Below, piece after piece: positions 3,991 through 61,241 of a stretch of 64,000 bases of DNA. Under the pieces are notes generated by a model. It made no database searches. It saw only the letters and a list, made by a program, of their open reading frames with translations, and was not told where the DNA came from. The first letter of the stretch is position 1. The number at the start of each line of letters is the position of its first letter. A program made the position numbers and the translations under genes. This DNA comes from Minisyncoccota bacterium (lineage in GTDB: Bacteria > Patescibacteriota > Minisyncoccia > Phycocordibacterales > UBA9973), in NCBI GenBank assembly GCA_041675085.1, contig JBAYUN010000003.1, positions 28,798 to 92,797 of the forward strand. Reading direction: 5' to 3'.

Positions 3991-4099
3991 GAAGGTCAGA
4001 CTTTCCATGTTTGACAATATCTTTTTAATTTTACAAAGTAGACAACTTGTGTTAAGGTAAATTTGAGATTAAATTGTTCAATTTTTAAAATATAATAGT

Positions 4100-53645: not shown

Positions 53646-54404
53646 ATGGCAAACAATAATTCTTGGAAAAAAATATTTGATGATTATAAAATTTTGAAAC
53701 ACGACTTTTCAAAAGCACCTTTTTATTTGTCTGCAAAAGATATAAAAAAATCCGTTCAAGATTTTAAAGGTACAACCGAAAAAGAAGTTCGTATATTGTG
53801 CAAAATGGATACAAGAGAAAGTGTTCCAGAAGTAATGAGGGAAAGGGGCTTGATTTTGTTACCAGTTAAAAACGGTTATTATGTAATTTTGAAGGGAGAA
53901 GGATATATTGATATACCTGACATAAAAAATGATGCTGAAATATACAATACTAAATTAGATTTTGATTTGGATACTGTAAAAATTGGTAACTCTGAAATGC
54001 AACATTTAGATTTTGCTTATGCTTCAAGTTTGATTAGAACATTTATGGAAGATCCGACACTTGTTTTAACTATTCGTGGTAGAAAATATACACCTGAATT
54101 TAGTTTTAAAATTGGTAAGCATCTTATCGAAACAGAAAGTGTGCAAACTGAAGTTGATGCGGGTTATGAAGGTAAAAATCAAATAGTTTTAATTGAAGCA
54201 AAGAATTCAAAAACAAAAAATACAATCATTAGGCAATTATATTATCCTTATAGACAATGGTCAGAATATACAAAGAAAAAAGTTGTTTTATTGTTTTTTG
54301 AGAAAAGAATTGATGAATATTTAATTTGGCAATATGAATTTTCCAACAAAGATAATTATGACTCAATAAAATTAGTTAAATCAAAAAAATATAAAATAGT
54401 TTAA
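53646..54404 (+). CDS. candidate PD-(D/E)xK restriction endonuclease
   Basis: VDAGYEGKNQIVLIEAKNS supplies D...(x12)...E-A-K in a hydrophobic beta-strand context. The stop overlaps the start of the downstream MTase (TAATG). Confidence 0.35.
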   Translation: MANNNSWKKIFDDYKILKHDFSKAPFYLSAKDIKKSVQDFKGTTEKEVRILCKMDTRESVPEVMRERGLILLPVKNGYYVILKGEGYIDIPDIKNDAEIYNTKLDFDLDTVKIGNSEMQHLDFAYASSLIRTFMEDPTLVLTIRGRKYTPEFSFKIGKHLIETESVQTEVDAGYEGKNQIVLIEAKNSKTKNTIIRQLYYPYRQWSEYTKKKVVLLFFEKRIDEYLIWQYEFSNKDNYDSIKLVKSKKYKIV

Positions 54405-55156
54405 TGTCACAAAAAGAATTAAAACTTCATCCCGAGAATTTTGAAATGGAGTGCACAAGCGTTTGGGCTTTTCCTAGGCGTGGGAATTGGGCTACTCATA
54501 CTTCGGATTGGAGAGGGAATTGGTCGCCTGAAGTTGTGCGTAATATAATTCTACGATATTCAAAAGAAGGGGAGCATTTGCTTGACTGCATGATAGGAGG
54601 CGGTACGACAGCGATAGAAGCCAAAATTCTAAATAGACATATAACTTGCCTAGATATCAACGAAGAAGCCCTAGAGAGAACTAAACGAGTTTTAAACTTT
54701 GAAAGTGATAACAAAGCCAAGCAGAGAGTCTTGAAATGTGATGCTCGGAACATGACTTGTATTAAAGATGGTGAGATAGATTTAGTCTTAACTCATCCAC
54801 CTTATGCAGATATTATTAAATATAGCGAAGGTCAGATTTTAGAAGACTTATCTAATATTCATGATATTGATAAATTTTGTGATGAAATAGAACAAGTAGC
54901 TAGAGAGCTTTTTAGAGTTTTAAAGAAAGGAAAATATTGTGCTATTTTGATAGGAGATACAAGGAGAAATAAAATGTATCAACCTTTGGCTTTTAAGGTT
55001 ATGGAAAAGTTTTTGAAAGCAGGTTTTGTTTTAAAAGAAGATATAATCAAAAGACAATTTAATTGCAAAGCGACAGGGTTCTGGGTAAACAAATCCAAAG
55101 AAGCAAATTTCTTATTAATAATGCATGAACATTTATTTATTTTTCAGAAAGTTTAG
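54404..55156 (+). CDS. N6_N4-type DNA methyltransferase (N6-adenine or N4-cytosine)
   Basis: LLDCMIGGGTTAIEA (SAM-binding) and DLVLTHPPYAD ((S/D)PPY/F catalytic motif). About 250 aa, DpnA/M.MboIC-like in size. Confidence 0.75.
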   Translation: MSQKELKLHPENFEMECTSVWAFPRRGNWATHTSDWRGNWSPEVVRNIILRYSKEGEHLLDCMIGGGTTAIEAKILNRHITCLDINEEALERTKRVLNFESDNKAKQRVLKCDARNMTCIKDGEIDLVLTHPPYADIIKYSEGQILEDLSNIHDIDKFCDEIEQVARELFRVLKKGKYCAILIGDTRRNKMYQPLAFKVMEKFLKAGFVLKEDIIKRQFNCKATGFWVNKSKEANFLLIMHEHLFIFQKV

Positions 55157-55214
55157 TATAATAAATTCTGATAAATATATGTTATAATAAAAAAGTGCTA
55201 CTATTAAATAGTTT

Positions 55215-55350
55215 AATCAAGAGTGGTGGTAGAGAATTGGCTCAGTAACCCCACAGCAACCTACAAATGTAAGGTGCTAAATCCAACCAGGTGCGAAAGC
55301 ATCAGGAAAGATATGTCTCGCGTCTAGTCCACGAGAGAAAAATCTTTCCT
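55215..55350 (+). promoter_or_regulatory. SAM-I (S-box) riboswitch, second copy
   Basis: AAUCAAGAGUGGUGGUAGAGAAUUGGCUCAGUAACCCCACAGCAACC...UAAGGUGCUAAAUCCAACCAGGUGCGAAAGCAUCAGGAAAGAUAUG. Terminator GAAAGA..TCTTTCC plus a T-run. Confidence 0.8.
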
Positions 55351-55376
55351 CTTATTAGAGGAATTTTTTATTTATT

Positions 55377-56312
55377 ATGAAGAAAACAGCAGAATTTGTT
55401 AGTCCAATGCATCCAGATAAAATCTGTGATCATATCGCAGATACTATACTCGATGCATATTTAGAAGGAGATAAAAATAGTCGTTGCGCTATAGAGGTTA
55501 TGGGTGGTCATAATCTGATTACTATCAATGGAGAAATCACCTCTAAAACAGAAGTTAACATTGAAGAGATTGTTAAAAATATCGTTGGTGAGAATTATAA
55601 AGTTTTATCAAATATTGCTTTGCAGAGTACGGAGATAGCGGCGGGTGTAGATACTGGCGGTGCGGGTGATCAAGGAATCATGAAAGGTTATGCGACTCGG
55701 GAGACCGATAATTTTATGCCATTAGAATATGAACTTGCGAGAAATCTTTGTCAGAAAATATTTGAGATATATCCTTATGACGGTAAGACTCAGGTCACGA
55801 CAGAAGATGGGCAGGTCAAAGTAGTTGTGGTGAGTTTTCAGAATTCTAAAAATATTGAACTTTTAGAATTAGTAAAAAGTATTATTCCTGCTGAAGAATA
55901 TCTGATCAATCCAGCTGGAGAATGGGTGCAGGGAGGATTTGATTCAGATACTGGTCTTTCAGGAAGAAAATTAATAGTAGATAACTATGGACCAGAAGTT
56001 GCTATTGGTGGTGGGTCTTTCTCAGGCAAGGATTATACTAAGGTAGATAGAAGTGGAGCATATATGGCTCGCAAGGTTGCCGTAGATCTGCTTAAAAAAT
56101 ATAAAGCTAAAGAGGTACATATAAAACTTGCATATGCTATAGGAAAAGCAGAACCAGTAATGGCTGTGGCTAATATTGATGGCATTGAAATAGAAATCAC
56201 AGGATATGATTTAACACCTAAAGGAATATTTGATTATTTAAAATTAAGTAAAATAAAATTTTCTAAAACTTCTAATTGGGGTCATTTTGGAAGAGGTTTT
56301 TCTTGGAATTAA
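55377..56312 (+). CDS. metK: S-adenosylmethionine synthetase, second paralog (311 aa)
   Basis: SPMHPDKICDHIADTILDA, GGAGDQGIMKGYATRET, DTGLSGRKLIVDNYGPEVAIGGGSFSGKDYTKVDRSGAYMAR. About 75-80% identical to the first copy by eye. Confidence 0.85.
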   Translation: MKKTAEFVSPMHPDKICDHIADTILDAYLEGDKNSRCAIEVMGGHNLITINGEITSKTEVNIEEIVKNIVGENYKVLSNIALQSTEIAAGVDTGGAGDQGIMKGYATRETDNFMPLEYELARNLCQKIFEIYPYDGKTQVTTEDGQVKVVVVSFQNSKNIELLELVKSIIPAEEYLINPAGEWVQGGFDSDTGLSGRKLIVDNYGPEVAIGGGSFSGKDYTKVDRSGAYMARKVAVDLLKKYKAKEVHIKLAYAIGKAEPVMAVANIDGIEIEITGYDLTPKGIFDYLKLSKIKFSKTSNWGHFGRGFSWN

Positions 56313-56356
56313 TATATGAAAACATTAAACTTTAAAATGATAGCTTAGATATCTGT

Positions 56357-56827
56357 TTGAGTTATACAAGCCTTAACATTAAATGTTATAATAATTCTAT
56401 GCAAATAAGATGCCGAGGGATAATTTTAGATAAGGAGGGGAAGATGCTTGCCGTTCGACATGGGGCGGATTTTGATTATTATGCTTTGCCTGGAGGGAAA
56501 TTGGATGACGGGGAGAATCCTTTGGTTTGTATCAAGCGGGAAATATTTGAAGAATTTGGAGTAGAAATACAAGTAGAGAATACTAAACTTCTTTATGTTC
56601 ATAATTGGAAGAACAAAGAAGACGGAGTTGAAAATTTGGAATTCATATTTTTGATAAAAGATAATGGAGAATTCATGAATCTAGAAGAAAAAAAGGGAAG
56701 TCATGCTTTTGAAATATTTGAAATCAAATGGATAGATCGGAATACAGAAATAAATCTCTTGCCAAAGCAGGTCCTAATAGATTATAAAAAAGGCTTCTCG
56801 GATGAGGTAGTATTCTTGTCAGTCTAG
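56357..56827 (+). CDS. NUDIX hydrolase
   Basis: Nudix box GGKLDDGENPLVCIKREIFEEFGVEI (Gx5Ex7REuxEExGu). The true start may be MQIRCRG at 56399. Confidence 0.65.
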   Translation: MSYTSLNIKCYNNSMQIRCRGIILDKEGKMLAVRHGADFDYYALPGGKLDDGENPLVCIKREIFEEFGVEIQVENTKLLYVHNWKNKEDGVENLEFIFLIKDNGEFMNLEEKKGSHAFEIFEIKWIDRNTEINLLPKQVLIDYKKGFSDEVVFLSV

Positions 56828-56841
56828 AATTATAAATACAT

Positions 56842-57303
56842 ATGAACTACTGGCTAATTAAAAGTGAAATGGAGTGTTATGGGATTGATGACTTGAAGAA
56901 GGATAAGAAGACTTTTTGGTCTGGGGTGCGGAATTACCAAGCGAGGAATTTTATGATGAAGGGGATGGAGATTGGGGACGGGGTACTCTTTTACCATTCC
57001 AACGGTACGAAAGAAAATCCGGCGGGGGTTTACGGACTAGCAAAAGTGGCGAGTAAGGCGCGTGCGGACGAGACGCAGTTTGATAAAAAGGATGAACATT
57101 ATGATAAGAAAGCTACTAAGGAAAGGCCGATATGGTACTCTGTTGATATGGCATTTGTAAAAAAGTTTGAAGAGCCGGTATCTCTTTCAGAAATTAAAAT
57201 TGATCCAGCATTCGCCGGCATGCCACTCCTCGCCCGAGGGCAACGCCTTTCTGTGATGCCCGTTTCCAAAAAGCATTTTGAGCATATCGTTACTCGAGCT
57301 TGA
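56842..57303 (+). CDS. EVE (PUA-like) domain protein
   Basis: MNYWLIKSEMECYGIDDL...WSGVRNYQARNFMMKGMEIGDGVLFYHSN...GVYGLAKVAS is a near-consensus EVE domain. Confidence 0.8.
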   Translation: MNYWLIKSEMECYGIDDLKKDKKTFWSGVRNYQARNFMMKGMEIGDGVLFYHSNGTKENPAGVYGLAKVASKARADETQFDKKDEHYDKKATKERPIWYSVDMAFVKKFEEPVSLSEIKIDPAFAGMPLLARGQRLSVMPVSKKHFEHIVTRA

Positions 57304-57331
57304 GCAAAAAAAGTAGAATAATATTACAAAA

Positions 57332-57365
57332 AATAAAGACCTTCATTTTTTTTTGAAGGTCTTTT
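57332..57365. terminator. bidirectional terminator
   Basis: AAAGACCTTCA-ttttttttt-TGAAGGTCTTT between convergent genes. Confidence 0.55.
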
Positions 57366-57379
57366 GATGTAAGAAGAAA

Positions 57380-57601
57380 TTATTTCTTCTTCTTGTTTGA
57401 TTTTTTGATTGAGGTGTATTTCACCTCCATGCCTTTTGGGCGTTTGGATTTTTTTACTCCGCAACTTGCGCTGCGGTTTTTAGCTATACCAGAGTTTGAG
57501 TACTTCTTACTCCACTCATAGCTCCCTGGTTGGGGAGTGCTACAGCTTGAGAAAAATAAACAACCAAAACCCAATACGATATAAAGAACAAACTTTTTCA
57601 T
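57380..57601 (-). CDS. small lipoprotein
   Basis: Signal peptide with a lipobox-like FFSSC. 73 aa, basic C-terminus. Confidence 0.35.
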   Translation of the reverse strand: MKKFVLYIVLGFGCLFFSSCSTPQPGSYEWSKKYSNSGIAKNRSASCGVKKSKRPKGMEVKYTSIKKSNKKKK

Positions 57602-57732
57602 GAATAAAGAATTTAGTGTGTGAAGAAATCTGTGTATATTATATCATAGATATATCTAAAAGTCAAGTATACGTGATGGTTCAATACCTTGGAATCACCT
57701 CAAATCATTAAATATATTAGGATTTAGGCCTA

Positions 57733-57806
57733 ATATCGTTAAAATCTGTTAAATATTATTGTTTTTAACGATATTGCTTGACTTTATCAGCAATATTTAA
57801 TATAAT
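57733..57806 (+). promoter_or_regulatory. consensus sigma70 promoter (TTGACT-17-TATAAT) overlapped by two palindromic operator-like sites
   Basis: TTGACT 57778..57783, 17-nt spacer, TATAAT 57801..57806. IR1 is ATATTGCT(57771..57778)/AGCAATAT(57789..57796), spanning the -35 and spacer. IR2 is ATATCGTTAAAA(57733..57744)/TTTTAACGATAT(57763..57774). The ATG lies 8 nt after the -10, so the mRNA is leaderless or nearly so. Confidence 0.55.
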
Positions 57807-57813
57807 CTTATAT

Positions 57814-58695
57814 ATGGCAAATACATTCAAGGCATATAAACAAATACAAGAACTACGGGAAAGGTATTATAAAGCCCTTGTTGGCAAAGAATCTCTTGTA
57901 AAAATGATTTCTGAAGCTGAAATTTCAGAGCAAGTTTATAACTCAAATGCTATTGAGAATAGTACTTTGTCTTTAGATGAAACAGATAAAATCCTACTTC
58001 AAATAGACCTTGATAGATATATATCCGAGAGAGAGATTTTTGAAGCTAAAAACCTAGCTCGAGTCGTAAGTTATATTGAAACTAAATCTAAAGCTAGTGA
58101 ATTAGATTTTGCAATTATTCTATCTTTGCATAAAATGTTAATCTCAAATATTAGAGATGAAATAGCAGGAAGATTTAGAAAAGAAGGTGAATGGGTTCGT
58201 GTGGGCGATCATATAGCTCCAGATCCTTTAGAAGTTGAAAACTTATTGCAAAAAGTTTTAACTGAATATAATGGAAATTCTAAAGAATCCATTGTAAAAA
58301 AAATTGCAAGATTTCACTTGGGTTTTGAATACGTGCATCCTTTTTGTGATGGCAATGGGCGTATCGGTAGAGTGTTAAATAATTACCTTTTGATTCGTGG
58401 AGGTTACGTACCTATAAATATTAAATTTATTGATAGAGCTATGTATTATGATGCTTTCCGTGAATTTCAAAAAAAAGGTACTACAAAAATAATGGAGATA
58501 ATAGTGCTTAAAGCTTTAACTAATAGTTATCATAAAAGATTAGCTTATTTAGAAAATAAATTAATTATTAATTTATCTGATTATGCTAAAAGAAATAAAA
58601 TTTCGCATGCAAATCTAATTAATAAAGCAAAAAGGCAAACTATCGAAGCTTTTATGGAGAGAGGTATTTGGAAAATTGGTGTAGATAAAAATTAA
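57814..58695 (+). CDS. Fic-domain protein (AMPylase family)
   Basis: HPFCDGNGRIGR is the canonical Fic motif HPFx(D/E)GNGRxxR. The start is reassigned to MANTFKAYK downstream of the promoter. Confidence 0.8.
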   Translation: MANTFKAYKQIQELRERYYKALVGKESLVKMISEAEISEQVYNSNAIENSTLSLDETDKILLQIDLDRYISEREIFEAKNLARVVSYIETKSKASELDFAIILSLHKMLISNIRDEIAGRFRKEGEWVRVGDHIAPDPLEVENLLQKVLTEYNGNSKESIVKKIARFHLGFEYVHPFCDGNGRIGRVLNNYLLIRGGYVPINIKFIDRAMYYDAFREFQKKGTTKIMEIIVLKALTNSYHKRLAYLENKLIINLSDYAKRNKISHANLINKAKRQTIEAFMERGIWKIGVDKN

Positions 58696-58950
58696 ATGCA
58701 AAGCTTTAGAGAAAAAGTTTTAGATATTGTGAAAAATATCCCTCGGGGGAAAGTTATGACTTATAAGGAAGTCGCGCTAAAGGCGGGGAGTGGGCGCGCT
58801 TCGCGGGCTGTAGGCTCGATACTAAAAATGAATTATGATAAAAATATACCTTGTCATAGAGTGATCAGAAGTGACGGGCAAACGGGCGAATACAATAGAG
58901 GCAGAGAAAATAAAATCAAATTACTTAAACAAGAAGGTGCTATTTTGTAG
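58696..58950 (+). CDS. MGMT/Ogt-family DNA-binding domain protein (methylated-DNA--protein-cysteine methyltransferase C-terminal domain only)
   Basis: TYKEVALKAGSGRASRAVGSILKMN...IPCHRVIRSDGQTGEY carries the PCHRV active-site motif. Only 84 aa, so no N-terminal domain. The ATG immediately follows the Fic stop. Confidence 0.7.
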   Translation: MQSFREKVLDIVKNIPRGKVMTYKEVALKAGSGRASRAVGSILKMNYDKNIPCHRVIRSDGQTGEYNRGRENKIKLLKQEGAIL

Positions 58951-59136
58951 CAGTTGACAATGAGTTGACAATAAAAACCATTTAGTTGTCGATGAGTTTA
59001 CAAGAGTGTTTTTTTTTGAAATATAAGTTATTTCTGGTATATTAAGAGAATGTCACTATCAATAGGCCCCAGTACTAAAGCATAGTTTAGTGCGGGGTAA
59101 AAATCGTAGGACAATTATTATTTTATATTTACTATT

Positions 59137-60246
59137 ATGAGTTTATCAATTGGAATCGTGGGACTACCTAACGTCGGGAAATCTACTTTATTTAATGCAT
59201 TGACTAAAAAGTCTGTACCGGCGGAGAATTATCCTTTCTGTACTATAGATCCTTCTGTAGGAATCGTACCTGTGCCTGATGCTCGTCTCTGGGCTCTTTC
59301 CGAATTCTCTAAAACTAAAAAGACTGTACCGGCTGTGGTGGAATTCGTAGATATTGCGGGACTCGTCGAAGGTGCGAGTAAGGGTGAAGGTTTGGGTAAT
59401 AAATTCTTAGCGAACATTCGCGAGACAGACGCTATACTGCACATGGTGCGTCTTTTTCCGCTCACTGGAGGCGATAAAGAGATAGCTCACGTTTACGGCA
59501 ATATTGATCCTATGAGGGACATCGGAGTTATTAATCTCGAGTTAGTTTTGGCAGATTTTGAGACAGTAATGAAGAGAATAAATAATTTACAAAAAGACGT
59601 AAAGCGTGGAGATAAAGAAGCTGTATTTGAAGAGACTCTACTGAAGAGAGTTGAGAAAATTCTTGAAGAAGGTAAACTCGCGAACGTCCTCGAATATACT
59701 CCCGAAGAAGCTAAGAAAATCAAACAATTAAACTTGCTAACTATCAAACCAATGATTTACGGTTTGAATAAAAAAGCTGGAGTCAAAAATCTCGACGAGC
59801 AGAATCCTGTATTCTTTCAAGAGATGACTGATGAGATATTGAAAAGTGGATCGAATTTTATTCTGATTGATGCAAAGATAGAAGACGAATTAAAAGATTT
59901 TGAAGGAGAAGAGAAGGATATTTTTAGAAAAGAACTCGGAGGTGAGCATGACGGTATCAACGACCTTATCGTCGGGTGCTACAAGCTCCTAGGTCTCGAG
60001 ACTTATTTCACGACTGGAGTCGAAGAGACTAGAGCTTGGACTATATTGAAAGGTTCGACTGCGCCGGTAGCGGGTATGGCTATTCATACGGATTTCAAAG
60101 ATAAATTCATTAGGGCGGAAGTAGTAGCCTATGACAAGCTTTTAGAAGCGGGGAGTTATGCGAATGCGAGAGAAAAAGGCTATGTACGTACAGAAGGCAA
60201 AGAATACATAGTCAAAGATGGGGATGTTATAGAATTTAAGGTTTAG
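59137..60246 (+). CDS. ychF: redox-regulated ATPase YchF (Obg-like)
   Basis: IVGLPNVGKSTLFNALT (G1), DIAGLV (G3), NKxD-like, plus a C-terminal TGS domain. Confidence 0.9.
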   Translation: MSLSIGIVGLPNVGKSTLFNALTKKSVPAENYPFCTIDPSVGIVPVPDARLWALSEFSKTKKTVPAVVEFVDIAGLVEGASKGEGLGNKFLANIRETDAILHMVRLFPLTGGDKEIAHVYGNIDPMRDIGVINLELVLADFETVMKRINNLQKDVKRGDKEAVFEETLLKRVEKILEEGKLANVLEYTPEEAKKIKQLNLLTIKPMIYGLNKKAGVKNLDEQNPVFFQEMTDEILKSGSNFILIDAKIEDELKDFEGEEKDIFRKELGGEHDGINDLIVGCYKLLGLETYFTTGVEETRAWTILKGSTAPVAGMAIHTDFKDKFIRAEVVAYDKLLEAGSYANAREKGYVRTEGKEYIVKDGDVIEFKV

Positions 60247-60324
60247 ATTTTAAATCTTGCTAAATATTTATATAGTTATAGAATATAAGAGGATATAATT
60301 CTTTAACTTTTTAATTTTATTAAC

Positions 60325-60686: not shown

Positions 60687-61241
60687 CTATTTTTTTTCTT
60701 TTTTGAGTTTGTTGATTTCTTCTAATAGGACTTCGAGAGTACGTTCTATTTTTTCAAATTTCTTTTTTTCTATTTCTTCTTCTTGATCGTCTTCTGTTGT
60801 ATCTTCTTCCTCTTCGTTTATCTCTTCGACGTCCTTTTGAATCTCGCCAACGTCTTCAGATATTTCGTCGACGTCCTCAGAAATCTCTTCGACGTCTTTC
60901 TGAATCTCGTCGACGTCCTCCGAAATCTCGTCGACGTCTTTTTGAATCTCTTCAACATCTTCAGAGATCTCTTCAACGTCTTTCTGGATTTCTTCAATGT
61001 CTTCAGATACGTCTTCGAGGTCCTGACTGTGTTGGTTGATAGTTATTTGAATAAATATAGCTAAATATATGGCTTCGAGTGAAACGATAGTAGTCAGTAT
61101 TAGTAAAATATCAGAAGATTCTACCCCAAAAAAACTAAGAGAAAACATAACCATAAAGAATATAGTATGTACGACGAGAGAGCTAGTAGAGCCAACCCAA
61201 GAAGTTATTTTAGTTGAAAAATCTTTTTTTTCTTTTCTCAT
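60687..61241 (-). CDS. membrane-anchored acidic coiled-coil protein with perfect heptad tandem repeats
   Basis: Two N-terminal TM helices, then about 10 consecutive heptads of the form (E/K)DV(E/D)EI(S/Q) encoded by a 21-nt tandem DNA repeat (60780..61022). Acidic tail. Confidence 0.4.
   Translation of the reverse strand: MRKEKKDFSTKITSWVGSTSSLVVHTIFFMVMFSLSFFGVESSDILLILTTIVSLEAIYLAIFIQITINQHSQDLEDVSEDIEEIQKDVEEISEDVEEIQKDVDEISEDVDEIQKDVEEISEDVDEISEDVGEIQKDVEEINEEEEDTTEDDQEEEIEKKKFEKIERTLEVLLEEINKLKKEKK
60780..61022. repeat. 21-nt tandem repeat array (about 10 units) inside a CDS
   Basis: tcttcgacgtctttctgaatc / tcgtcgacgtcctccgaaatc units. It generates spurious plus-strand ORFs at 60783..61064 and 60797..61039. 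Confidence 0.6.

Follow-up and report, generated by a model that had tools for sequence, protein, structure and literature searches.

A probably self-repressed class II Fic cassette beside a resident MGMT-domain gene in a Minisyncoccota genome

We analysed a stretch of 64,000 nucleotides (hereafter the window) from a Minisyncoccota bacterium (GenBank assembly GCA_041675085.1, contig JBAYUN010000003.1, positions 28,798 to 92,797 of the forward strand), in which a gene encoding a 293-aa Fic protein is followed on the same strand by a gene encoding an 84-aa MGMT-domain protein. The two genes have zero spacing, as the initial annotation of this DNA had reported, since the Fic stop codon TAA (58693-58695) directly adjoins the MGMT ATG, and a near-consensus promoter accompanied by inverted repeats lies upstream of Fic. 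That annotation considered the pair as a possible toxin-antitoxin (TA), defence or lesion-sensing module, in which the MGMT protein might be the repressor reading the palindromes. Our results favour a different explanation, which we consider probable: window positions 57732-58695 would represent a self-contained, horizontally spread and probably self-repressed class II Fic cassette standing beside a resident MGMT gene, and Fic and MGMT would not constitute a system.

The Fic protein matches PF02661 with 80.5 bits (cut-off 24), and an identical protein (P0001, 100%) is annotated as 'Fic family protein [Candidatus Paceibacterota bacterium]', Paceibacterota being a lineage of the candidate phyla radiation; exact-sequence look-ups of the window Fic, the window MGMT protein and P0001 returned no record. 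Among 45 family members, the active-site residues H175, P176, F177, D179 and G180-R186 are invariant and residue 178 (Cys in the window) is variable. The same 45 proteins share without exception the hexapeptide SNAIEN, which aligns with the inhibitory helix TVAIEG of FICD, the best solved relative (E=1.9e-21, residues 26-217). By its sequence motifs, the window Fic is therefore a class II Fic that would not need an antitoxin, considering that S44-N-A-I-E48-N49 is present in cis. The earlier idea of a Fic toxin depending on a partner antitoxin was thus not sustained, as inspection for (S/T)xxxE(G/N) found the motif intact and invariant within Fic itself. Two PADLOC models recognize the protein, PDC-S04 (5.8e-33) ahead of SoFic (2.3e-27). 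As the inhibitory Glu of FICD is used for deAMPylation, a bifunctional enzyme (AMPylation/deAMPylation) is conceivable here by analogy; judging from relatives, EF-Tu, FtsZ and GyrB/ParE are candidate targets.

The promoter of the window cassette, TTGACT and TATAAT separated by a 17-nt spacer, agrees with the consensus at 11/12 positions and is joint best between 55000 and 61000 in a consensus scan. It had been placed 8 nt before the Fic ATG; the promoter itself stands, and the distance from the -10 end to ATG 57814 is 7 nt. No Shine-Dalgarno sequence precedes this ATG in our reading of 57400-59300, so that the leaderless start proposed in the initial annotation agrees with the geometry of the site, and a leaderless mRNA would be expected.

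A repeat finder confirmed the outer palindrome as a perfect inverted repeat, AATATCGTTAAAA / TTTTAACGATATT, although its arms measure 13 bp instead of the 12 reported, with 18 nt between them. The inner palindrome, ATATTGCT (57771-57778) / AGCAATAT (57789-57796), does cover the -35 and the spacer as described, although with 8 bp it is by itself not beyond chance. When the 212-nt intergenic region was simulated with a Markov model, perfect inverted repeats of at least 12 bp appeared in 0.6% of the runs and one of 8 bp in 18% (P ~0.18); therefore, only the outer repeat is remarkable on its own. Perfect inverted-repeat seeds of at least 12 bp number 18 in the 64-kb window, against 0.26 expected. 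Exact matches to the operator motif in the window are limited to the two outer arms (sites 1 and 2 below), and further copies with up to 2 mismatches do not exceed chance (15 against 8.2 +/- 2.9 expected). A search of 57300-59200 against Rfam gave no family at the curated threshold, the two listed matches at E<=1 (E 0.46 and 0.93) being far below their gathering scores.

The significance of these repeats became clear across the Fic family. A one-genome-per-species scan gave 329 loci encoding relatives, of which the best 80 (70-86% identical) were used, and the 130 nt upstream of each Fic were searched for the motif, a site being called with at most 3 mismatches in 12 at the expected offset. 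Results showed a motif of 12-13 bp, AAAACCGTGAAAA (in the window's clade AATATCGTTAAAA), repeated in a fixed order: forward at about -80, inverted at about -50 next to the -35, forward at about -30 inside the promoter spacer, followed by the -10 and the ATG. Of the 80 loci, 71 have the complete set of sites and the other 9 have two, when a random AT-rich 12-mer would match at 0.7% per position; site 1 occupies its place in 78/80 loci, and site 3 (as AAAACCGTGAAAA or TTATCGTTAAAA) fills the -35/-10 spacer in 73/80. The spacings between sites, 30 and 20 bp, correspond to whole helical turns, and an A- or T-tract lies midway between sites 1 and 2. Moreover, the motif varies at one base (CGT[G/T]AAAA), and a change there affects the three sites in concert. 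The promoter is kept as well: of 81 cassettes, 64 have TTGACA and 12 have TTGACT as the -35 (76/81 together), 34 have TATAAT and 25 have TATACT as the -10, the distance from the -10 end to the ATG is 4-12 nt in 69, and a Shine-Dalgarno-like sequence was found in 5.

By sequence, the outer palindrome of the window thus corresponds to sites 1 and 2 of an operator-like element present throughout the family. The proposal that the palindromes act as an operator was borne out to this extent, the 13-bp repeat being a genuine operator-like element kept with Fic in all 80 loci. When the closest cassettes were aligned (4-way), site 1 proved to be exactly where identity sets in, with nothing common upstream of it. 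A derived form of site 3, C[A/G]GCAATAT, occurs only in the window and in loci L001, L103 and L104, whose Fic proteins are 86-88% identical to that of the window. Its GCAATAT mirrors the flank of site 2, that is, the left arm ATATTGCT, and the inner 8-bp palindrome is therefore clade-specific. In L019, L034 and L055, where the leader between the -10 and the ATG measures 26 nt, an extra operator-like copy ATTAACGATATTAA lies in the leader and may be a fourth site.

Table 1. Features of the Fic cassette and its immediate surroundings, in window coordinates.
Feature	Position	Strand	Basis or remark
Lipoprotein-like ORF (open reading frame), 73 aa, MKKFVLYIVLGFGCLFFSSC...	57380..57601	-	No family match; host gene next to MGMT
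Divergent promoter TTGACT-17-TATAAT with upstream TG	57638..57666	-	Consensus scan; host promoter, kept in L081
Fic cassette as indel (operator/promoter and Fic ORF to stop)	57672..58695	+	blastn against L081
Operator-like site 1, AATATCGTTAAAA	57732..57744	+	Left arm of 13-bp inverted repeat; left edge of inter-cassette homology
Operator-like site 2, motif inverted, TTTTAACGATATT	57763..57775	-	Adjoins the -35; found in 80/80 loci at about -50
-35 hexamer TTGACT	57778..57783	+	Consensus scan
17-nt spacer, position of site 3	57784..57800	+	Derived variant TTATCAGCAATATTTAA; includes right arm AGCAATAT
-10 hexamer TATAAT	57801..57806	+	7 nt before ATG; leaderless mRNA inferred
Fic gene, 293 aa, class II Fic AMP-transferase-type	57814..58695	+	PF02661, E=1.6e-22
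Inhibitory-helix motif S44-N-A-I-E48-N49	57943..57960	+	Fits (S/T)xxxE(G/N), N-terminal to the Fic core
Fic active-site motif HPFCDGNGRIGR, H175-R186	58336..58371	+	Matches HxFx(D/E)GNGRxxR
C-terminal ~45-residue domain, residues 249-291, predicted winged helix-turn-helix	58558..58686	+	AlphaFold2 fragment model, Foldseek, conservation
84-aa MGMT/Ogt C-terminal-domain protein, resident, outside the cassette	58696..58950	+	PF01035, E=2.6e-27

The cassette, about 1 kb long, was found at 70-88% protein identity in metagenome-assembled genomes (MAGs) labelled as many phyla, namely bacteria of the candidate phyla radiation (CPR), Planctomycetota, Nitrospirota, Desulfobacterota, Acidobacteriota and Omnitrophota. 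Its neighbours are not conserved. Clustering them by blastp was uninformative, as they are too diverse, and Pfam censuses were used instead: the nearest ORFs of the 80 loci belong to 64 different Pfam families upstream and 121 downstream, none of them present in more than 3 loci. No recombinase or other conserved companion gene of the cassette was seen in this census of 80 loci. A phage or plasmid origin of the cassette was considered and rejected, as IMG/VR held no relatives of the window Fic and PLSDB no close ones, with identity of at most ~37%. In L103, two 36-nt direct repeats, 89% identical, flank the Fic cassette (2863-2898 and 3996-4031) and may hint at movement.

One kind of flank recurs. 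An HsdS-like C-terminus (...KAFxGEL*) ends a few nt before site 1 in 13/80 loci, and an HsdR-like N-terminus (MNE[AS]ETR...) begins a few nt after the Fic stop in 12/80, so that hsdS and/or hsdR ends flank 18/80 cassettes (about a fifth). The HsdR-like ORF is long (774 aa) in L074 only and ends after 15-73 codons in the other loci; tblastn with HsdM, HsdS and HsdR of L074 matched 9 loci. The left flank of the window keeps a degenerate trace, AGGATTTAGGCCT, to be compared with GGGGATTTGTAGCC in L002. These flanks suggest that the cassette spreads together with pieces of type I restriction-modification (RM) operons. HsdR/HsdS remnants were observed next to Fic in L002, L003, L007, L019, L030, L044, L049 and others.

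As the motif travels with Fic across the labelled phyla and no other conserved gene does, the protein binding the sites should be encoded by the cassette, that is, Fic itself. The last ~45 residues of the protein (LSDYAKRNKISHANLINKAKRQTIEAFMERGIWKIG) are among its most conserved parts, and an AlphaFold2 (AF2) model of residues 222-293 gives a beta-alpha-alpha-beta-beta arrangement, with a predicted local distance difference test (pLDDT) of 75-84 over the domain, which we regard as a putative winged helix-turn-helix (HTH). The Foldseek neighbours of this model are nearly all winged-helix DNA binders (ArsR/SmtB, MarR, Z-alpha), with E-values all at or above 0.4 and none significant; locally, BldC 6ama_B fits best (42 columns with an rmsd of 1.7 A; probability 0.80, E-value 1.1). 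The pattern L-x-x-Y-A ... S-x-x-x-I-N-K ... W-K-I-G appears to resemble that of an excisionase-type HTH. A phmmer search with the C-terminal 54 aa against 1.84 billion representatives did not lead outside this Fic family, the matches being its members or fragments of them, with many short ones that begin at the internal Met227; because no other architectures appeared, there was no annotation to borrow for the domain.

Residue 273, which falls in the predicted recognition helix, tracks the variable operator base, being K with T in 16/16 cassettes and not K with G in 65/65. This covariation, read from sequence, is consistent with direct readout. In addition, site 3 takes part in the concerted change of the motif although it lies outside the hairpin, which suggests a single trans-acting specificity and speaks against the inverted repeat being only a structural element, such as a hairpin or terminator.

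Comparison by blastn with a near-identical sister genome (locus L081), the closest relative of this one, showed that the window cassette is an indel, with flanks matching at 90-97% nucleotide identity. Window 56374-57671 corresponds to L081 4684-5980 at 91% and window 58696-60281 to L081 6067-7609 at 90%, and the 1,024 bp in between (57672-58695) are replaced in L081 by 86 unrelated bp. The indel includes ~60 nt of unrelated left flank (57672-57731), and on the right it ends precisely where the Fic stop meets the MGMT ATG, which accounts for the zero spacing of the two genes. Gene order in the window is a type II RM pair (53646-55156), a S-adenosylmethionine (SAM) riboswitch, metK, Nudix, EVE, a lipoprotein ORF, Fic, MGMT and ychF, and that of L081 is RE-MTase-...-Nudix-EVE-lipoprotein-MGMT-YchF, Fic being absent; identity to the window proteins is 98% for MGMT, 95% for EVE and 99% for YchF. 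The promoter divergent from the cassette, which the initial annotation did not mention, faces the 73-aa lipoprotein-like ORF. By tblastn this ORF also lies next to MGMT in L081/L082 (80% identical, divergent) and in L083/L084 (55%, convergent).

The 84-aa protein is, as originally described, the DNA-binding/active-site domain of MGMT only. PF01035 covers it end to end (94.9 bits, cut-off 27), TIGR00589 also matches (2.6e-21, 75.4 against 46.4 bits), and PCHRV with Cys53 lies at 58849-58863. Its best PDB match is the OGT of S. solfataricus (2.2e-10; chain residues ~71-147 of the 151-aa SsOGT), and alignment to this enzyme and to human AGT showed that the conserved Tyr, the Arg finger, the Asn and PCHRV are all kept. 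The protein lacks the two-domain Ogt/MGMT architecture, having the C-terminal domain alone. Identity as an alkyltransferase-like (ATL) protein was ruled out, since the acceptor Cys is retained in PCHRV. Relatives number 3,619, mostly of 83-86 aa, and C-domain-only forms are common in CPR bacteria. No terminator-like site was seen between Fic and MGMT in the window, and co-transcription of the two genes is plausible because they are co-directional, have zero spacing and no terminator separates them. In L103 and L104, Fic is followed by a GC-rich terminator hairpin and ~150 nt of common 3' flank, the window having neither.

We surveyed the adjacency of the two genes in 86 Fic loci, comprising the window, the 80 loci from genomes and 5 contigs from metagenomes. 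Fic has an MGMT gene within 4 kb in 4/86 and adjacent to it only in the window. Among the 80 genome loci, tblastn placed MGMT within 4 kb in one (L024, 1.7 kb) and adjacent in none, EVE in one and Nudix in three. Conversely, MGMT occurs without Fic in L081-L084, and a metagenome scan with MGMT, which returned 14 loci only, found Fic in 0/14. L103 and L104, which encode the two closest Fic relatives for which flanking genes could be read (87-88% identical), have an MGMT gene of 84/85 aa 0.8 kb upstream of Fic, separated from it by a VTT-domain gene in L103 and by PspC and EVE in L104; the MGMT and EVE proteins of these loci are only 57-70% identical to those of the window. Fic is directly followed by EVE in L004 and by Nudix in L002, and five further relatives (L001, L005 and L106-L108, 83-86% identical) have none of the MGMT/EVE/Nudix neighbours. 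We read the MGMT genes of L103/L104 as part of a variable neighbourhood shared by small Paceibacteria genomes, one ancestral arrangement having later been shuffled. We also noticed that in L085 (6001-7272; also L086 and L088), from another Paceibacteria-like lineage, an MGMT gene (84 aa, 84% identical) is followed after 21 nt by a gene for a 331-aa RhuM/Doc-type protein (HPYVDGNKR), and that in L024 the gene immediately behind Fic is RhuM-like. Genes of the Fido superfamily recur in this neighbourhood.

These data can be combined in the following explanation. The cassette would have been inserted between the lipoprotein gene and MGMT, or retained here and lost in the sister genome. The Fic enzyme would be restrained by SNAIEN, the inhibitory helix in its own N-terminal part, with no need of a partner antitoxin, and the cassette would be transcribed from its near-consensus sigma-70 promoter as a leaderless mRNA. 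Most likely, a Fic dimer would bind the three sites through the predicted C-terminal winged helix and occlude RNA polymerase, giving negative autoregulation; this step is modelled on CccR, where autorepression was shown experimentally, and on SoFic, where it was suggested. As the insertion displaced the native upstream region of MGMT and the window has no terminator, MGMT would probably be read from the Fic promoter, and we infer its translation by re-initiation at TAA-ATG, an accidental operon.

Several points weigh against this explanation. The C-terminal domain found nothing among PDB sequences in a profile search (0 at E<=10) and nothing meaningful, with no HTH model, in Pfam at E<=10, which adds to the lack of significance of the Foldseek neighbours. 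The full-length AF2 model, built from 45 close homologues and left out of the fold search for its low pLDDT, has a mean of 63, less than 50 at the C-terminus and poor values in the inhibitory-helix region. A single phylogenetic split underlies the whole link between residue 273 and the operator, and the C-terminal domain is not enriched in clade-discriminating columns (2/12). The taxon labels of the MAGs are the depositors' own and may include binning errors. The indel may reflect a gain here or, alternatively, a loss in L081. Site 3 of the window is derived, therefore regulation here may differ from the family norm. Finally, MGMT lies within 1.1 kb of Fic in 3/4 cassettes with the derived site 3 (window, L103 and L104), which is more than chance if the events are independent.

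Other explanations have to be considered. The repeats could be unrelated to autoregulation, being the sites of some other factor, recombination sites used for movement, or a terminator or insulator against read-through from upstream, an alternative we judge unlikely. Movement would be in keeping with inter-cassette homology that begins exactly at site 1 and with the 36-nt direct repeats around the L103 cassette, yet no recombinase or other conserved gene goes with the cassette. The inverted repeat, if transcribed, would fold with -15.3 kcal/mol (z = -3.2), and many cassettes come directly after an hsdS stop codon, as a terminator might; however, the repeat is conserved in sequence beyond the requirements of pairing, and the upstream gene of the window is divergent, so that a terminator is unneeded there. 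A host factor cannot be common to MAGs of so many phyla, and site 3, inside the promoter spacer, co-varies with sites 1 and 2.

According to a second alternative, Fic and MGMT would be unpaired, but the Paceibacteria cassette would favour an island of nucleic-acid modification or damage genes (RM, Nudix, EVE, MGMT) that might cooperate functionally in defence or DNA damage. We find this quite unlikely. The five arrangements with MGMT, EVE or Nudix about 1 kb from Fic (window, L103, L104/L105, L004 and L002) speak for it, yet they are confined to the closest clade, may descend from a single inherited arrangement that was later rearranged, and have no counterpart in L001, L005 and L106-L108. The type II RM pair 2.5 kb upstream in the window, the hsdS/hsdR ends around about a fifth of the cassettes and the PADLOC defence-candidate models matching Fic point in the same direction; on the other hand, genomes of ~1 Mb have few variable regions, where mobile genes would pile up without any functional link.

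That Fic and the 84-aa MGMT form a dedicated module, either a toxin with its antitoxin/repressor or a lesion sensor coupled to AMPylation, with MGMT reading the palindromes, is most improbable, because the shared strand, the zero spacing without a terminator, the fact that MGMT domains bind DNA, the MGMT genes within 1.1 kb of Fic in L103 and L104 and the RhuM/Doc-type gene after MGMT in L085-L088 are outweighed by the operator and promoter kept with Fic in 80/80 loci, 79 of them without MGMT within 4 kb, by the invariant inhibitory motif of Fic itself, by the presence of MGMT without Fic in L081 and in all 14 metagenome loci, by the retention of all catalytic repair-enzyme residues in MGMT and by a window adjacency that is an insertion junction. 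In particular, MGMT cannot be the cognate binder, since the operator goes with Fic into genomes where MGMT is not nearby, and the 84-aa protein proved to be an ordinary Ogt-type domain, widespread in CPR bacteria without Fic. The initial annotation had itself named two findings that would speak against its pairing, an inhibitory helix in cis and an ordinary Ogt occurring without Fic, and both were largely obtained.

The surroundings of the cassette offered further observations. The type II RM pair, on the forward strand and conserved in L081, consists of a restriction enzyme with DUF6996/DUF6997 (PADLOC REase_II 6.7e-31) and an N4/N6 methyltransferase (MTase_II 1.1e-86) that overlap. It is followed by the SAM riboswitch (RF00162, 55.2 bits, 55211-55317, forward strand), which lies upstream of a short metK (311 aa, 55377-56312); window ~55170-56373, comprising riboswitch and metK, is replaced in L081 by a T5orf172/MUG113 gene. 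Between the MGMT stop and ychF, four copies of AGTTGACAA (58952-59003) form two pairs (58952-58971 and 58984-59003) with a period of 11; this stretch is absent from L081, and the motif is not enriched elsewhere in the window. The ychF leader has an inverted repeat, CCCAGTACTAAA / TTTAGTGCGGGG (59068-59097), conserved in L081 and with no Rfam match. Further on, a 184-aa protein (60687-61241, reverse strand) combines an N-terminal membrane segment with a long acidic tandem repeat ((E/D)ISEDVEEIQKDV)n, and its L081 homologue matches DUF948.

We found no paper on this cassette or on a Fic-MGMT pairing in the literature. On the evidence above, the pairing should stay out of catalogues of defence and TA modules. 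The cassette offers a clean natural example of a Fic enzyme equipped with a promoter, operators and a probable repressor domain of its own, and its conservation is unusually strict across MAGs that are assigned by label to very distant phyla, genome-reduced CPR bacteria among them. The 12-13-bp motif and its three-site geometry make a precise prediction, directly testable by electrophoretic mobility shift assay (EMSA). The insertion also illustrates how a housekeeping repair gene can be placed under a foreign, probably repressed promoter, and a compact host-independent expression module, with consensus promoter and leaderless start, may aid the genetics of uncultivated lineages.

Going further, and only tentatively, the ~1-kb unit may be an undescribed broad-host-range, self-regulating single-gene cassette: a class II Fic bearing a Xis/BldC-like winged helix, its ATG leaderless and preceded by a consensus promoter with a three-site operator. 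Its home niche would then be the hsdS-hsdR junction of type I RM operons, and it would serve as a second-line abortive-infection or addiction module. If this were true, sigma-70 promoter, 70S-compatible leaderless translation and autorepression would need no host input, which would explain its persistence across phyla.

Comparison with known systems helps to place the cassette. Class I Fic TA systems (VbhT/VbhA, FicT/FicA) also have a potentially toxic Fic, a small adjacent gene and promoter palindromes; in contrast to the window, they carry the inhibitory helix on a separate antitoxin in a conserved pairing, whereas here the helix is in cis, no neighbour is conserved in 80 loci, and the small neighbouring gene is a repair gene encoding an 84-aa MGMT domain that plays no part as an (S/T)xxxE(G/N) helix. 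Unlike Ogt, Ada-C and human AGT, the window MGMT has no N-terminal domain. FICD/HYPE has the closest solved Fic core, its inhibitory helix and active-site loop aligning with those of the window Fic; however, identity is ~30%, and FICD is an endoplasmic reticulum enzyme acting on BiP, with a transmembrane segment and tetratricopeptide repeats and without a DNA-binding domain. The structure that locally fits the C-terminal model best (not significant at its E-value of 1.1) is that of BldC, a protein whose multimers bind cooperatively to repeated half-sites. The window domain differs from such small BldC/Xis-type proteins in being fused to an enzyme, and it matches no Pfam HTH.

Fic-HTH fusions were noted by Kinch et al., who wrote that they "may regulate expression of fic" (PMC2686095). 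SoFic of Shewanella oneidensis carries a C-terminal winged HTH (residues 281-432), binds, in dimeric form only, the 100 bp that precede its start codon, and AMPylates EF-Tu (bioRxiv 10.64898/2026.07.09.737422). Like the window Fic it is a class II Fic, recognized by the same PADLOC SoFic model, and it constitutes a one-gene system located close to RM and further defence genes. Nonetheless, the PDB SoFic aligns over residues 157-208 only, and identity with SoFic was excluded, as the score with NCBIfam NF046030, 38.5 bits, is far short of the cut-off (550). In E. coli, Sofic is accompanied by AS1, an antitoxin of 47 aa encoded downstream (PMC12249575), and no AS1-like 47-aa ORF follows the window Fic, whose stop adjoins MGMT.

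CccR of Yersinia pseudotuberculosis is a class II Fic with a C-terminal HTH, whose dimer represses its own promoter through AGATAATCAT-N26-ATGATAATCT near the -35/-10 (PMC9755527). Both proteins have an N-terminal inhibitory motif in cis (SARIEG in CccR, SNAIEN in the window Fic) and a spaced inverted repeat at their own -35/-10, with 10-bp arms 26 bp apart in CccR and 13-bp arms 18 bp apart in the window. The differences concern size and context: CccR is a 380-aa effector of the type VI secretion system with a larger HTH domain, whereas the window Fic has 293 aa and a ~45-residue domain with no detectable sequence relation to that of CccR, and its cassette adds a third site in the spacer, a probable leaderless start and a cross-phylum spread. 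The idea drawn from CccR and SoFic, that a Fic protein can be both enzyme and autoregulator, would thus extend, as we predict, to a much smaller DNA-binding domain. By analogy, the window cassette would work most like CccR, although by sequence it does not belong to the CccR family.

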